This document shows positions 9,723 through 15,937 of a stretch of 20,054 bases of DNA, piece by piece. The position numbers and the translations under genes are program-made. The stretch spans positions 1-20,054 of the IMG/VR virus record IMGVR_UViG_2671180360_000015, one strand, 5' to 3'. Within the stretch, counting starts at the first letter, position 1. Every line of letters starts with the position of its first letter. The notes beneath the pieces are model-generated. The model was not told the DNA's origin, did no database searches, and was given only the letters and a program-made list of their open reading frames with translations. This DNA is from a virus (Duplodnaviria; Heunggongvirae; Uroviricota; Caudoviricetes).

Positions 9723-10756
9723 TGAGTAAGAAAAAAGGGAAAACACCGCAGCCAGCGGTGAAAACAATGACTGCCAGCGCCCCGAAAATGGAAGCATTCA
9801 CCTTTGGTGAGCCGGTGCCGGTACTCGACCGCCGTGACATTCTGGATTACGTCGAGTGCATCAGTAACGGCAGATGGTATGAGCCACCGGTCAGCTTTAC
9901 CGGTCTGGCAAAAAGCCTGCGTGCTGCCGTGCATCACAGCTCACCAATTTACGTCAAACGCAATATTCTGGCCTCGACATTTATCCCGCATCCGTGGCTT
10001 TCTCAGCAGGATTTCAGCCGCTTTGTGCTGGATTTTCTGGTGTTCGGTAATGCGTTTCTGGAAAAGCGTTACAGCACTACCGGTAAGGTCATCAGACTGG
10101 AAACCTCACCGGCAAAATATACCCGCCGTGGGGTGGAGGAGGATGTTTACTGGTGGGTGCCGTCCTTCAACGAGCCGACACCTTTCACGCCCGGCTCCGT
10201 GTTTCACCTGCTGGAGCCGGATATTAATCAGGAGCTGTACGGCCTGCCGGAATATCTCAGCGCCCTTAACTCTGCCTGGCTGAATGAGTCGGCCACGCTG
10301 TTCCGCCGCAAGTATTACGAAAACGGCGCACATGCCGGATACATCATGTACGTCACTGATGCCGTGCAGGATCGCAACGATATCGAAATGCTTCGCGAAA
10401 ACATGGTTAAGTCGAAAGGCCGCAATAACTTTAAAAATCTGTTTCTCTATGCCCCACAGGGGAAAGCCGACGGCATTAAAATTATCCCGCTCAGTGAAGT
10501 GGCAACGAAGGACGATTTTTTTAATATCAAAAAAGCCAGCGCCGCTGACCTGCTGGACGCGCACCGCATCCCCTTTCAGTTGATGGGGGGCAAGCCGGAG
10601 AACGTCGGGTCGCTGGGTGATATTGAGAAAGTGGCAAAGGTCTTTGTCCGCAATGAGCTTATCCCGTTACAGGACAGGATCCGCGAGATAAACGGCTGGC
10701 TCGGTCAGGAGGTCATCCGCTTTAAAAACTACTCACTGGACACTGACAACGGCTGA
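9722..10756 (+). CDS. Q: Portal protein gpQ
   Basis: 344 aa as in P2 gpQ; followed by terminator and cos. Confidence 0.9.
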   Translation: MSKKKGKTPQPAVKTMTASAPKMEAFTFGEPVPVLDRRDILDYVECISNGRWYEPPVSFTGLAKSLRAAVHHSSPIYVKRNILASTFIPHPWLSQQDFSRFVLDFLVFGNAFLEKRYSTTGKVIRLETSPAKYTRRGVEEDVYWWVPSFNEPTPFTPGSVFHLLEPDINQELYGLPEYLSALNSAWLNESATLFRRKYYENGAHAGYIMYVTDAVQDRNDIEMLRENMVKSKGRNNFKNLFLYAPQGKADGIKIIPLSEVATKDDFFNIKKASAADLLDAHRIPFQLMGGKPENVGSLGDIEKVAKVFVRNELIPLQDRIREINGWLGQEVIRFKNYSLDTDNG

Positions 10757-10761
10757 ACATC

Positions 10762-10783
10762 GCCGCCTGCGGGCGGCTTTTTT
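10762..10783 (+). terminator. Rho-independent terminator downstream of Q
   Basis: GCCGCC-tgcg-GGCGGC stem-loop followed by TTTTTT, 6 nt after the Q stop. Confidence 0.6.
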
Positions 10784-10925
10784 ACAACCCGCCATCACGC
10801 CCTCACACGCTCACCACCGCACAAAACAGCCCGCAGACACACCAACGCCCCGGCTAACAATCTAAACGCCATCACGACGCGCTCAGACGCTGAAAAAATA
10901 AAATCAGCACCACCGCCAGCGCGCA

Positions 10926-10944
10926 GTGCTTTCCCCGCCTCGCC
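10926..10944. other. cos: cos site: 19-nt cohesive-end sequence of P2 (window minus strand reads GGCGAGGCGGGGAAAGCAC)
   Basis: Exact reverse complement of the recalled P2 19-nt cohesive end; about 190 bp to the left (10757..10944) also matches the recalled P2 left-end sequence; position between Q and the old/tin-equivalent locus. Confidence 0.8.
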
Positions 10945-11104
10945 CGCCCGCTTCATGGGGCGGTTTTAATGCAGTTGCATTACCATACAGAAGTACTGCC
11001 ACGTCTGACAATTCATAGCTAGAATGTATAGCATATGTTGCATGCAAAATAATGCATATAAAGAATGCTTTTCACTCAATACTTCATCATACGATTTTGT
11101 TGGC

Positions 11105-11887
11105 TCATTTTAGAAGCCCTATTATAGCTGCAATCATACTTCCTACGCCGCCGACTGCTGCGAAAAAAGTAGCCCAAAACATTTTCTTCTGAGTACTCAA
11201 ATTCTCTCTGTACCGCACCTCATCTTTATTGAATGTAGATATTGTGTTCAGTGCCTTTCCTGTTGGCCTAAATCCACTACTTGTTTCAACAAGATCTCCA
11301 TTCTGAACAAGAGAATTCAGGCATAAACGAAGCTCTTTACGCATCCTGTTTTTATCGTCATGGTATACCCATAAACTACCAGCGACTTCGGTCATTATTG
11401 AAAACTCACTAAACACAGTTTGAGCATCCCATTCACGATACATTCTTATAATCGTTGAGAGAACAAACATCACATCAGTTATTTCTTTTTTTTGCTGTCG
11501 ATAAATATATTTTTCACGACTAAACTTTATATTTTCATAATTAGACTTTACTCTAAAGAACAACTCCCTTAAAAATGTTAAATCATTTAAAGAGTTAAAT
11601 CGCAACTCATGCGCACGGTAGTAGTAAACACCAAAAAAAGAATCAGGCGTAACCTCAGAAATATCCAAGCATGAACTTATATGAAATCTACGCTCCTCAT
11701 CATCCCATTTAAAAGCCTTTATCTTCCCATCAACCAAACAGTCAAAGAGGTATTCTGTATCATTTTTATCTTTAATATATACAGAGTACATATCATACTT
11801 AATCGCGTTTTCATATAACAAACTAATACGGCCATCATCTGGCGTTCTTTTCTTATCAAACTTCTTAAGTTGGTTTATAATTTTCAT
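11105..11887 (-). CDS. Hypothetical protein, 260 aa, soluble N-terminal domain with a single C-terminal TM anchor; candidate defence effector
   Basis: Long ORF in AT-rich DNA; C-terminal hydrophobic segment MFWATFFAAVGGVGSMIAAIIGLLK; no recognisable motif; weak SD. Confidence 0.65.
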   Translation of the reverse strand: MKIINQLKKFDKKRTPDDGRISLLYENAIKYDMYSVYIKDKNDTEYLFDCLVDGKIKAFKWDDEERRFHISSCLDISEVTPDSFFGVYYYRAHELRFNSLNDLTFLRELFFRVKSNYENIKFSREKYIYRQQKKEITDVMFVLSTIIRMYREWDAQTVFSEFSIMTEVAGSLWVYHDDKNRMRKELRLCLNSLVQNGDLVETSSGFRPTGKALNTISTFNKDEVRYRENLSTQKKMFWATFFAAVGGVGSMIAAIIGLLK

Positions 11888-11945
11888 AACATTCTCGCAG
11901 TGCTAATCTCATACGCAACAAATCTCGGTTCTGCCGCTCTAATAG

Positions 11946-11988
11946 TCAAAAAATGCCGACACCCAATTAAATATTCAGCGTCGGCATT
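11946..11988 (-). terminator. Terminator-like hairpin between the two cassette genes
   Basis: On the minus strand AATGCCGAC / GTCGGCATT 9-bp stem with 19-nt loop followed by a T-run, 9 nt after the upstream gene stop; loop is long for a canonical terminator. Confidence 0.35.
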
Positions 11989-11996
11989 GTAAGATA

Positions 11997-12770
11997 TCAA
12001 TTATCTATGATTGATATCACCTTACCAGTTTTTATATCAACACGCGCAGCAATCGTCTGTTTCACCACTCCGCCATAAGCATTAGTTCCGCGAAACGTGG
12101 TTTTCACAATGGCATGCGGGTCTTTATTCAAAACCAGATGATATACCGTTGATACATGTTTATAAGATGAATCATCGTTCATATTATCTTTAATTAGTTT
12201 TTCCAATGGACGATAAGAACCATCCCAACCACTAAAATTACTCTGAAATGTATCAAGATTGATTTTATTGTTTAGTGAATTCGGGTCATTTTCATAATCA
12301 TTAAAGCACCACCCAAGAACATCACCGAGTTTCAACTCATCATCTTTGGTAAATGTATATTCACTCATGCAGGCATAAAACGCATCTGACGCGGTGGCTG
12401 GAACTTCCTTAAAATCAATGTAACTATTCACAATATCGTGTCGTGTTTTCTTTGACTCGTTCCGATATTCCTTGAGTGTTTTTTCACCATATTCGAATGT
12501 TTTTTGGACTTTATGTTCTGCAACGGTTGATGTTTCAGTTTTATCAACTGGCTGGCTTTTTTCTGTTGGATAGAGTATTGAACCAATTATGCTCAATACA
12601 AAACCTCCTCCGAGATAAACCGCACTTGCACGTTTGCGGTTTGGCATTCGCACCAGTGATGGCTTGATTAACCCGATGAAGAAAGCAACGAAAAAAGCGA
12701 GTGATAGAAAAGCGATTATAGTATCCATAGCTATCCTTTTTGCATCATCCACATAAAAAATCGACCTCAT
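11997..12770 (-). CDS. Hypothetical membrane protein, 257 aa (243 aa from the start at 12728); two N-terminal TM helices and a ~180-aa C-terminal domain predicted to be periplasmic
   Basis: AT-rich ORF; TM1 TIIAFLSLAFFVAFFIGLI, basic loop RMPNRKRAS, TM2 AVYLGGGFVLSIIGSILY; the ATG at 12728 has the better SD (AAAGGAtagctATG). Confidence 0.65.
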   Translation of the reverse strand: MRSIFYVDDAKRIAMDTIIAFLSLAFFVAFFIGLIKPSLVRMPNRKRASAVYLGGGFVLSIIGSILYPTEKSQPVDKTETSTVAEHKVQKTFEYGEKTLKEYRNESKKTRHDIVNSYIDFKEVPATASDAFYACMSEYTFTKDDELKLGDVLGWCFNDYENDPNSLNNKINLDTFQSNFSGWDGSYRPLEKLIKDNMNDDSSYKHVSTVYHLVLNKDPHAIVKTTFRGTNAYGGVVKQTIAARVDIKTGKVISIIDN

Positions 12771-13157
12771 GTTAGCAACAGGATGCTTACTTTTGAATAT
12801 TTGTAAGTTGTTAGCTCTCCAACCTAACTCCTTTCAACCGTCAAAAACCGGCACCAACGCAGTAAAAATATGTCTGTCAACTAACGCCTCGCTACGCTCG
12901 TTGTTCAACCCCGCCAGCCCTGAAAACAAGTTTCACGACTGGCGGCGTTCTCTATCGTCTTCGTGGTGGTGGCGCAACTCTGGACTGACCGATATAGTTA
13001 AGCCGCCCGTAATTATCCCGAACTATTTCGGCACACCCGACCAGCTCATCGGGCGTCAGATTTTCGTTGACCATAATCCGCTGTAAACGCTGAACAATAG
13101 CCATCAGCTTGATATTTTTAGTTTTATGGTGCGGTATCTCGCCTGGTATTCTGTGCA

Positions 13158-13613
13158 TTATCCAAGCCACCCGTTTTGCTTTGCACGCTCCACCTGTTCA
13201 TCTGAATAGTTCCATATCCCATCCGCAGCAACCACTGCCCCGCCAGACAGCCCCGTCTCTGGTTCATACATAACAGCAAGGCCGAGCTGATGCATAATTT
13301 CATGATTAATTCTGAATACCAGACCACGTTCACTAAGTTCTTTCCAGTTCACAATCTTATATGCGCCCGTATTAAGCAGCTCAATACTTAGCAAGACATA
13401 ATCTTCCAGCCAGTCTGACAGGTCAGTAACATCTGTTATCCGGGCTTCAACCTTTCGCCCCGTAAACACACCCTGCACCCATTCATGCAAAATCAACGTG
13501 TCCCCGCGCTCATAATTACGGTCATTTTTCCGAAACTCTGCGCGTTTTTTTCCTTCCAGTACAAGGTCGAAATATTTTGCGTGCAGCTTTACCTCGTGAA
13601 TTTTTGCCATCAT
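13158..13613 (-). CDS. ASCH-like / DUF3850-type protein with C-terminal extension (151 aa)
   Basis: MAKIHEVKLHAKYFDLVLEGKKRAEFRKNDRNYERGDTLILHEW resembles the DUF3850/ASCH signature; start ATG overlaps the gpA stop (ATGA); occupies the P2 orf91 position. Confidence 0.7.
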   Translation of the reverse strand: MMAKIHEVKLHAKYFDLVLEGKKRAEFRKNDRNYERGDTLILHEWVQGVFTGRKVEARITDVTDLSDWLEDYVLLSIELLNTGAYKIVNWKELSERGLVFRINHEIMHQLGLAVMYEPETGLSGGAVVAADGIWNYSDEQVERAKQNGWLG

Positions 13614-15937
13614 GTCCACTCCATTACTGTTGAGAATCCCGGCCACTCATCAGCGACCGGATACGTGAATTTTTTCCCGTCATAATTTACGGTCGCGCCA
13701 CGCACCAGCGCCTCAAGCTCCCATCGTTGCGGCCTGATACCGTTCTGAGCGAGGTCAACGCGGATACGGGTAATTTGCAATCGTTCTGACCGGGTCAGTC
13801 TGGCCGATGGCGCTATTTCATGCGGTTTTAACGGGTTTCCGTTTCTTTGCTGACGGTTTGGTCTTCTCAGACCGTGTTTTAATGCGCTTCTGAGCGCCCT
13901 CACGACCTCCGGGTCATTCCATTCGATAACACCGTCATCAACCAGATTAAGCACTGCTGCGGCGTGCTCAGAAGGTGTGGGAGCCGGTAACGAAGCATCA
14001 CCACCGGTGAGCTTTCCACAGTTATTGACAGGACTCCGAGGCGCGGCGATGCCGCTTTTTAAAGTCAAAGGCTCAACGACCGGAACTTTCGGAACAATGC
14101 GCCAGTCCGTCGTTCTGGTGATATGAATATGACGCGCGCCGAGATGCGGCGCGTAAATGCCGACCACTCTCTCGACTTCTTCCTCGTACTCGTTAACGTC
14201 ATCCGACGGGCTACGGGCGACCCTGACAGTCTGACAATCGCGCGGGACATTTGCCCCACCCTGCGCGCTGATATACAACGCAAAATCACCACTGTCTGCG
14301 GCGGCGCGTGCAGCCTCGACGCGCTCGTCAAACTCATCAGCAATGCTGACGCCGCGCGGCAATTTGCGTAGTTCACGGTAAGCCCCCATTGTCGGCAGGC
14401 CAACCGTTTTAAATTGCGGGATGCGCCACGTTGACGCCCATGCGGTAACAGCCGCTGCAGTGTCTTTCAGCGGCCTGCCGGTGTCGTTATCGAGCTGACC
14501 ATCCAGTGCATAGCCGTCGATGTTTTTTGAAATGTATTTCGCGATATATCCCGCAGCACCGCCCCGGTTAAGGTGTTTTGCCTGAAAACGGTTTCGCGCG
14601 GCTCCTCTTTCGTCGCCATCCTCTTTGAGCGCATAGCGACGCATGATTTCGATAATCTGGTTACGCTGGCGTGAATTACAAAAAAGCATCATATGCCAGT
14701 GCGGCGTTCCGTCGTGGTGTGGCTCGACGACACGCAAACCGTAGACCTGTAAATCATTATCCTTGAATGCCGTGCGCATCAGGCTCCAGATACGGCAGAG
14801 ATAACGCTGCGCATCCTTTGGATTAAATGCCTCATCGTTCCAGCCGTGATTAAGCTGCACGGTTTTACTTTCGCCTTTTCCTACCTGACGTGTCGGGTGA
14901 TACTTTGACGGCGCGGTCAGCGTGATAAACATCCCCACATCACCCTCTGCAGCGGCGTAACGCTCAATACCGGCAATGGTGTTCATCAGCTCCATCCGGC
15001 GAATTTCAGGATTAGAAATACTGCCCATCACCTTACTGATAAGGTCGATGCGCTCGCCGGTTTCCCTGTTTTCAAGGTCACACGATTTAAGAAATTCCAG
15101 ATTTGCCTGGCGGCGCGCACGCACATCACGAATGGCGTGTTTACTGGCATAAGGAGAACGGTCTTTATTGACCTCCCCGACAGCTATCAGTAACGCTTCA
15201 TGCCAGCGCATACGCTGGCCTTTAAGCTGACTAATCCACCACTCATCGTTAAACAGGCGGGCAATGGCAGAATATGCCTGCCTCGTGGTCATCTGTCCTT
15301 TACGGTATTTTTTCCAGTAGAGCGGGGAAATATTGAAAGCACGTGCAGCGCCAGCAACATGACCATACAGATGTGCCTGCGCCTCATCCGTAAACAGCGA
15401 TTCTTTTTCACCATGCGCATCAACCCATGCATCGCAGAGTTCCTCATACATCATGAAAAGCTGCGATGAGATACGGGCGGCAAACTTTTTCAGCTCCTTG
15501 TCATTCATTCCAGGCAGGCGCGCATAGTGGTCACGCTCTGCCAGAAACAGCAACGACGCGTCGGTGTTCATTTCATGGCGCTGATTCACGCGCTCAATGC
15601 GCGGCCATAAACGACGCTGAAAAGTGGATGTGAGGAAATAAAACCCGTGTACCGGACTTTTATTGCGCCGGATGTAGTCATAGCGTGAAGTAAACAGCGA
15701 GCGCAAAAAGTAAGGCAGGCGGTTAATCGTGGATAAAACACCTTGCACCTGACGCATCTCGTCACGTGTAAGGGGTCTTTCGCGCCCGACAGCCTCGCGT
15801 GGCGCGTTCCATGCATAAGCACCAGTAAACGCCTTACCGGTGCCTGCGGCAAATGCTGACGGAGGGACAAAACGCCCGGAGGCTTTAACGGCCATATGAG
15901 CCAAAAGCCTCAGAACAACGCTTGCTGAGTTGCTCAA
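13610..15937 (-). CDS. A: Replication initiation endonuclease gpA (rolling-circle initiator)
   Basis: HUH motif in EPHHDGTPHWHMMLF; start at MAVKASG (15895) would give 761 aa, the recalled P2 gpA length; longest ORF is 775 aa. Confidence 0.9.
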   Translation of the reverse strand: MSNSASVVLRLLAHMAVKASGRFVPPSAFAAGTGKAFTGAYAWNAPREAVGRERPLTRDEMRQVQGVLSTINRLPYFLRSLFTSRYDYIRRNKSPVHGFYFLTSTFQRRLWPRIERVNQRHEMNTDASLLFLAERDHYARLPGMNDKELKKFAARISSQLFMMYEELCDAWVDAHGEKESLFTDEAQAHLYGHVAGAARAFNISPLYWKKYRKGQMTTRQAYSAIARLFNDEWWISQLKGQRMRWHEALLIAVGEVNKDRSPYASKHAIRDVRARRQANLEFLKSCDLENRETGERIDLISKVMGSISNPEIRRMELMNTIAGIERYAAAEGDVGMFITLTAPSKYHPTRQVGKGESKTVQLNHGWNDEAFNPKDAQRYLCRIWSLMRTAFKDNDLQVYGLRVVEPHHDGTPHWHMMLFCNSRQRNQIIEIMRRYALKEDGDERGAARNRFQAKHLNRGGAAGYIAKYISKNIDGYALDGQLDNDTGRPLKDTAAAVTAWASTWRIPQFKTVGLPTMGAYRELRKLPRGVSIADEFDERVEAARAAADSGDFALYISAQGGANVPRDCQTVRVARSPSDDVNEYEEEVERVVGIYAPHLGARHIHITRTTDWRIVPKVPVVEPLTLKSGIAAPRSPVNNCGKLTGGDASLPAPTPSEHAAAVLNLVDDGVIEWNDPEVVRALRSALKHGLRRPNRQQRNGNPLKPHEIAPSARLTRSERLQITRIRVDLAQNGIRPQRWELEALVRGATVNYDGKKFTYPVADEWPGFSTVMEWT

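Follow-up and report, generated by a model that had tools for sequence, protein, structure and literature searches.

Infection can be stopped after adsorption by single, inner-membrane-anchored proteins that phages and prophages encode. SieA of phage P22 is an inner-membrane exclusion protein that blocks DNA entry (PMC10883804). Imm and Sp of T4 are likewise inner-membrane exclusion proteins that block DNA entry, and Sp is described as acting on the tail lysozyme in the periplasm (PMC11436027). HK97 gp15 shares the single-protein make, the inner-membrane anchor and the block after adsorption. The Orf97-type protein described here is also phage-encoded and predicted to be anchored in the inner membrane, and is likened to SieA, Imm, Sp and gp15 by analogy. 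Its large periplasmic domain of two lobes has no counterpart described for any of the four.

The closest described gene is orf97 of coliphage 186. Together with tum it is named as the 186 SOS operon by Owen et al. 2017, citing Brumby et al. 1996 (PMC5322425). The 186 RefSeq record (NC_001317.1) gives the order of this operon as promoter p95, LexA site, tum, partial terminator t95a, orf97 and terminator t95b, and no gene follows orf97. The note on orf97 in that record reads "expression from plasmid blocks 186 infection". The mechanism behind this phenotype has, to our knowledge, never been explained. A membrane protein over-expressed from a plasmid can block infection in a non-specific way.

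The window studied here is a stretch of 20,054 nucleotides (IMG/VR record IMGVR_UViG_2671180360_000015). It is a P2-like (Peduoviridae) prophage of Escherichia coli and is 100% identical to strain E70 across the studied region. Judged by alignment, one of its minus-strand genes is an orthologue of 186 orf97 and is not new: orf97 was defined in the 1990s in phage 186, and this is its copy in the P2 hotspot. What is added here is a firm start codon, a high-confidence fold with a topology argument, and a very large family that is absent from domain and defence databases. The protein is held, with moderate confidence, to be a single-gene superinfection-exclusion protein acting in the envelope. The phenotype in this reading is taken from the database note on the 186 orthologue, and that note favours the exclusion role named in the original prediction, since the annotated protein is 76% identical.

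Limits, kinship and setting of the gene

The minus strand is open without interruption across 11997..12770, which gives 257 aa counted from the first ATG. The coding sequence is read as 243 aa plus stop at 11997..12728, in line with RefSeq WP_001476973.1, PHROG 3403, the alignment with 186 Orf97 and the conservation of the start codon. Upstream comparison places the true start at the ATG at 12728 (Met15 of the long ORF) and not at 12770, and makes 12729-12770 non-coding, because this ATG and its Shine-Dalgarno sequence are conserved throughout the related loci, the 14-codon extension is limited to the closest relatives, and RefSeq and PHROG 3403 likewise start at Met15. The 80 related loci have 37 distinct upstream sequences, and every one of these retains both the ATG and the Shine-Dalgarno sequence (AAAGGA, 12734..12739, minus strand, 5 nt before the ATG), the latter as AAAGGA or AAGGA. 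Two of the closest relatives have ATA for the first ATG of the extension, and in most 186-type loci the extension is shut by in-frame stops 4-15 codons upstream. The start had been called ambiguous, with AAAGGA at 5-nt spacing noted before 12728; that signal is borne out at 12739-12734, and 12728 is settled as the start.

Homologues number 163 at E<=1e-3 in 90% clusters, nearly all of 243 aa, and the 50% library holds 2113 clusters. This breadth of homology confirms that the ORF is real, far beyond chance. The gene has a G+C content of 37.7%, compared with about 53% in the phage core. N, D, K, Y and T are enriched relative to phage core proteins, and tryptophan stands at 1.1% against 2.1%. Part of this residue bias is due to the low G+C of the gene. 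The C-terminal domain had been described as rich in N, D, K, Y and W, which is correct for the first four (and for T) and incorrect for W.

The 186 gene was found by tblastn against phage genomes. Its product (NP_052294.1) aligns with the window protein over 243/243 residues with no gaps, at 76% identity (E 2e-148), and PHROG 3403 matches residues 15-257 of the long ORF, that is 1-243 of the protein, with E 3.5e-147. The two have in common the length of 243 aa, the hairpin, linker and periplasmic domain, the position of the gene between A and cos, and the conserved Shine-Dalgarno sequence and start. DNA homology with 186 starts about 45 nt before the start codon and stops at the stop codon. 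In contrast to 186, the window gene has neither tum nor a LexA site, and the t95a hairpin is decayed. Its backbone is P2-type (A-ASCH-68 aa), and it has its own terminator, followed by a further cargo gene.

The gene order in the window is gpA, ASCH, the 68-aa gene, the orf97-type gene, a 260-aa gene, cos and portal. In E70, RefSeq gives terminase and portal, then on the opposite strand the 260-aa and 243-aa hypotheticals, the 68-aa hypothetical, ASCH/DUF3850 and the replication endonuclease gpA. On the minus strand, the P2-type cos 19-mer GGCGAGGCGGGGAAAGCAC (10926-10944) defines where the phage genome ends on the right, about 160 nt past the 260-aa gene. With replication gene A on one side and cos on the other, the orf97-type gene thus falls in the cos-proximal A-to-Q region. 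The A-Q region is the P2 hotspot of variable, often antiviral cargo (Rousset et al. 2022, PMC9122126). The hotspot setting first proposed for this gene is borne out by the gpA...cos order, and the exact arrangement, including WP_001476973, is found in Table S5A of the same study among the uncharacterised arrangements. A NAR 2026 paper on P2/P4 hotspots makes no mention of the orf97-type gene, and a literature search by accession number gave no match.

The 80 related loci come from IMG/VR and were found with an alignment of 13 closer sequences. In 80/80, orf97 lies between gene A and cos, where the P2/186-like genome has its right end. Of these loci, 20 have a P2-type backbone (A, ASCH, 68-aa gene, orf97), with 92-100% identity, and 60 have a 186-type backbone (A, tum, orf97), with 75-80% identity. 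The tum gene precedes orf97 in 60/60 of the latter.

Upstream of the window gene, no LexA box occurs in the nearest 220 nt or so, and the six one-mismatch sites in the window are as many as expected by chance. The sigma-70 scan of the minus strand at 12729-12950 gave no site with at least 9/12 consensus matches, and a tum/DinI gene was not found at the window locus. The LexA operon with tum is a feature of the 186 operon and not of the Orf97 protein family.

The left edge of the variable region is marked by a conserved non-coding hairpin element of about 70 nt (12870..12949, minus strand). It comprises a hairpin with a 15-bp stem (GCCGCCAG...CTGGCGG), followed by GGGTTGAACAACGAGC..GCGAGGCGTTAG, and has no U-tract. 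The element occurs without annotation in 70 records of P2-like phages, among them P2, Wphi and 186. An Rfam search of 10700-13300 returned sub-threshold chance matches only. In the window the element is upstream of orf97; in 186-type phages it directly follows orf97, and the sequences diverge just past it. Because the element lies before the gene in the window lineage and after it in 186-type phages, orf97 is read as hotspot cargo in the former and as part of a fixed SOS operon in the latter.

The two genes preceding orf97 in the window show features of their own. The ASCH/DUF3850 + DUF7415 protein (162 aa; 13158-13646, minus strand) has the same N-terminus as P2 orf91, which diverges after this shared part and ends at 108 aa. 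The 68-aa gene (12952-13158, minus strand) overlaps the ASCH gene, sits after it, and has no family match. A homologue of it is located downstream, not upstream, of orf97 in three 186-type loci. The 68-aa gene was also considered as a remnant of Tum, and this was rejected (BLASTP E 0.027 over 22 aa, no DinI match).

Membrane hairpin, periplasmic domain and proposed action

The N-terminal part of the protein is predicted to form a hairpin of two membrane helices. Transmembrane helix 1 covers residues 3-21 (17-35 in the 257-aa numbering; 12666..12722, minus strand), with a value of 2.69 in a 19-residue Kyte-Doolittle window and an AlphaFold2 helix at 2-26. Transmembrane helix 2 covers residues 34-52 (48-66 in the 257-aa numbering; 12573..12629, minus strand), with a Kyte-Doolittle peak of 1.81 and an AlphaFold2 helix at 31-52. 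They are joined by a short basic loop, KPSLVRMPNRKR (residues 22-33; 12630..12665, minus strand), which is predicted to be cytoplasmic from its K/R content. The stretch PSLVRMPNRKRASA between both hydrophobic segments contains 4 K/R and no D/E. The N-terminus, MD-, is predicted to face the periplasm. The original prediction of two hydrophobic helices split by a strongly basic loop matches these segments; its term bitopic is the wrong word for what is a two-span hairpin.

A periplasmic location of the C-terminal domain, which had also been predicted, is supported by four independent lines from sequence comparison and modelling. The first is the positive-inside pattern: across 27 hairpin homologues, K+R residues average 4.3 in the loop compared with 0.2 at the N-terminus, and the loop holds most K+R in 23/27. 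The second is the range of homologue anchors, which comprises a lipoprotein signal peptide with lipobox, a cytoplasmic zinc ribbon with a single transmembrane helix, and the hairpin. The lipobox and zinc-ribbon anchors both place the homologous domain outside the cytoplasm. The third is a pair of cysteines, Cys120 and Cys141, each kept in 50/56 sequences, which fits a disulfide in an oxidising compartment. The fourth is that the fold matches are periplasmic proteins. By prediction and comparative evidence, Orf97 has the envelope location and the extracytoplasmic or membrane-embedded working part that are seen in exclusion proteins.

These anchors also bear on the idea of an abortive-infection or lysis-type effector, in which the hairpin would make a membrane lesion that kills the cell or times lysis. 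The two transmembrane helices would suit such a role, as would the co-expression with tum at SOS induction in 186 and the frequency of membrane effectors in hotspot systems (PMC9122126). Against it, conservation in the family lies in the periplasmic domain, and the anchor is swapped for a lipid anchor or a single transmembrane helix. A cytoplasmic sensor is absent, and the gene is far from the lysis cassette. In addition, several homologues lie beside or in an operon with a repressor, and a toxin would be hard to tolerate if these genes are expressed in lysogens. A killing or lysis role is thus very unlikely. Envelope sensing, as put forward at first, is unlikely too, because the sole cytoplasmic part is a loop of about 12 residues that leaves no output domain.

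A set of 56 diverse homologues went into the AlphaFold2 model, whose pLDDT averages 91 and is about 98 over residues 80-243. Behind the hairpin the model shows a flexible periplasmic linker (residues 53-79; 12492..12572, minus strand) with pLDDT 54-63 and no secondary structure, and the length and sequence of this part vary in the alignment. The folded C-domain, earlier put at about 180 aa, does exist and is closer to 165 aa (residues 80-243), set behind a linker of about 25 aa. Its first lobe (residues 80-162; 12243..12491, minus strand) is HdeA-like, has its helices within 85-162, and is probably locked by a Cys120-Cys141 disulfide. Its second lobe (residues 163-243; 12000..12242, minus strand) is an alpha+beta lobe of cystatin/NTF2/VirB8-like type, in which a helix at 173-182 packs on four strands in 190-242. 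In this lobe G170, K180, S188, H191, T194 and N216 are nearly invariant, and the near-invariant motif reads W-x-G...K...S-Y-x-H-x-x-T...N-x-(F/Y)-G.

The structural relatives of both lobes are distant. Foldseek against the PDB gave nothing below E 0.08, a BFVD structure search gave uncharacterised phage proteins only, and a profile search against PDB sequences gave no match. HdeA/HdeB, YmgD and the type VI immunity proteins Rap1a/Tai4 are small, helical, disulfide-bonded periplasmic proteins with only 5-16% identity to Orf97. Unlike these, Orf97 carries its helical lobe on a membrane tether and joined to a second lobe. Compared with the cystatin/NTF2-like/VirB8-like domains of TcpC, TraM, TraE and VirB8, the alpha+beta lobe, with just four strands, falls short of a full NTF2 cone in size. 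It shows no sequence signal to these domains and has a near-invariant motif of its own.

Another reading is a periplasmic immunity or protective factor apart from phage entry. Orf97 could then be an inhibitor of peptidoglycan hydrolases or of type VI/bacteriocin effectors, similar to Rap1a/Tai4, or a stress chaperone similar to HdeA, and would serve as a fitness trait of the lysogen. This is unlikely. The low identity to such proteins comes with no profile match, the HdeA/HdeB family PF06411 of Pfam included, and HdeA-like and cystatin/NTF2-like folds are generic small folds. Moreover, the sole phenotype recorded for the family is a block of phage infection, and the invariable place of the gene behind tum in 186-type loci (60/60) ties it to the phage life cycle.

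Database searches with the protein leave its family unnamed. PADLOC, Pfam and NCBIfam gave no match, and Pfam on 56 family members gave N-terminal zinc ribbons only. No match to an exclusion family (Imm, Sp, SieA, SieB, gp15, Cor/Llp) was found in PHROGs, Pfam, NCBIfam or PADLOC, and the PHROGs matches are to families of unknown function only. Homology to a housekeeping membrane protein family, which would have spoken against exclusion, was looked for in Pfam and NCBIfam and none was found.

The rivals, namely a two-gene system, a periplasmic immunity protein or chaperone, and an abortive effector, are each less likely than single-gene exclusion. In the exclusion mechanism proposed, the hairpin would insert into the inner membrane with both termini in the periplasm and the 12-residue basic loop in the cytoplasm. 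A flexible tether of about 25 residues would then hold the two-lobed domain of 165 aa in the periplasm. An incoming phage of P2/186 type would adsorb, and the infection would fail at the envelope. The tethered domain would most likely bind the tail tip or another part of the machinery that delivers the DNA; candidates are the tape measure, tail-tip proteins and a wall-degrading activity. The step hit would most likely be the one in which the tail tip or DNA conduit crosses the periplasm and inner membrane. Alternatively, the target may be a periplasmic or inner-membrane host factor needed by the phage. With either target, the phage DNA would never reach the cytoplasm.

The timing of such exclusion may differ between the two backbones. 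In 186-type phages orf97 follows the antirepressor gene tum in a LexA-controlled operon, and exclusion would come on when repressor immunity is lifted, because orf97 is co-expressed with tum in the SOS operon of 186. In the P2-type prophage orf97 is carried as cargo with about 45 nt of its leader, and would protect against heteroimmune 186-like competitors. If the exclusion function holds across the family, it would offer an experimentally tractable handle on the poorly understood crossing of the periplasm by contractile-tailed P2-like phages.

Downstream neighbours and terminator

The gene had been described as the upstream member of a cassette, and the downstream slot does not bear this out. 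An intrinsic terminator, AATGCCGAC..GTCGGCATT + TTTT (11948..11988, minus strand), lies directly after the orf97 stop. Its dG is -24.4 with a z of -4.8, and 0/200 shuffles are as stable; for the hairpin including the T tail the dG is -20.8 kcal/mol. A consensus scan missed the terminator because its loop is larger than 8.

Between orf97 and the portal gene, the 78 loci compared have at least ten unrelated gene families or none. A membrane protein family of about 220 aa is found downstream of orf97 in 20 loci, the 260-aa family of the window in 16, a 326-aa family in 7, a 353-aa family on the opposite strand in 7, and a 311-aa family in 6. Several singleton neighbours occur as well, and in about 11 loci nothing follows orf97, as in 186. 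The neighbours were also considered as a single partner family, and this was rejected since only 3/6 immediate neighbours are related to each other.

The neighbour in the window is a 260-aa protein with a C-terminal transmembrane anchor (11105-11887, minus strand). It belongs to PHROG 7611, has no Pfam match, and has a weak, insignificant match to DruD in PADLOC. Among 5,426 complete E. coli genomes, 95 contain orf97, and the 260-aa gene is also present in 6/95. The 260-aa family itself occurs in 16 of the genomes, in 10/16 at about 66% identity only. In the one of those 10 that was inspected (L098, 3499-5415), the neighbours of the 260-aa homologue are a reverse transcriptase and an HTH gene, and orf97 is absent. 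This suggests that the 260-aa protein is a membrane effector of retron/DRT type that stands alone in the window.

A two-gene defence cassette would have the periplasmic protein sense an envelope perturbation and the tail-anchored 260-aa protein act as effector. The two genes are indeed adjacent on the same strand, and the pairing recurs in 16/78 loci on both backbones, the partner being 97-100% identical in P2-type and 58-61% identical in 186-type loci. The commonest downstream neighbours (clusters c0 and c1) are, in addition, both membrane proteins. However, a strong terminator separates the genes, few of the orf97-bearing E. coli genomes have the partner, and the partner is found beside a reverse transcriptase where orf97 is absent. 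Furthermore, 186 Orf97 is recorded as active alone in a phage with no downstream gene, and the 12-residue cytoplasmic loop is all that Orf97 has for signalling. The cassette is very unlikely. Because the neighbours vary or are absent, a terminator follows, the 260-aa gene is found apart, and 186 Orf97 is on record as active by itself, the gene is autonomous and is not half of an obligate two-gene cassette.

Two comparisons with validated multi-gene P2-hotspot systems of Rousset 2022 were made. Orf97 as the "2TM" of the phage AC1 system (2TM+1TM+TIR) was rejected, as BLASTP gave no alignment at E<=100. The hp+hp+hp proteins, compared by eye only, showed no homology to Orf97.

The wider domain family

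With clustering at 50% identity, an exhaustive HMMER search gave 2,113 clusters with E<=1e-3, of which 610 reach E<=1e-10. Many of the cluster matches cover only the last 85 residues or so, and the alpha+beta lobe is the most widespread module of the family. A further profile search for homologues brought little added diversity. Carriers of the Orf97 domain comprise P2-, Mu- and lambda-like prophages, in which the domain stands behind interchangeable anchors.

All eight distant members sampled (8/8) are in prophage accessory positions. Three adjoin an S24 or HTH repressor, and one shares an operon with a Mu-like prophage repressor. Three others follow gpD/ogr at the end of P2-like prophages, and one follows mor in the middle region of a Mu-like element. 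Such positions are classical sites of lysogen-expressed exclusion and conversion genes.

It is possible, though doubtful, that the two-lobed domain represents a large uncatalogued family of prophage entry blockers. The patch of K180, S188, H191, T194 and N216 would then bind, in the periplasm, a conserved part of the phage DNA-delivery apparatus or of the cell-wall step of entry, and in some prophages the domain may act together with an adjacent secreted nuclease. If the exclusion function holds family-wide, many prophage genes now listed as hypothetical would gain an annotation.

Two of the eight distant members (2/8) are located directly downstream of predicted secreted nucleases, an SNase and an Endonuclease_NS, beside a prophage repressor (L091, 5526-6837; L096, 4333-5684). 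These two loci may represent a module of a nuclease and a periplasmic partner.

E. coli CX12 has a full-length relative of 237 aa with the same hairpin and the loop MPNRKRSS (L088, 4976-5689). At the DNA level it matches the window gene over part of the latter's length only, at about 68%. The CX12 gene lies in a different P2-like prophage, at its other end, where it follows gpD and ogr and adjoins the host gene fieF. It is a second accessory site at which this kind of gene occurs.
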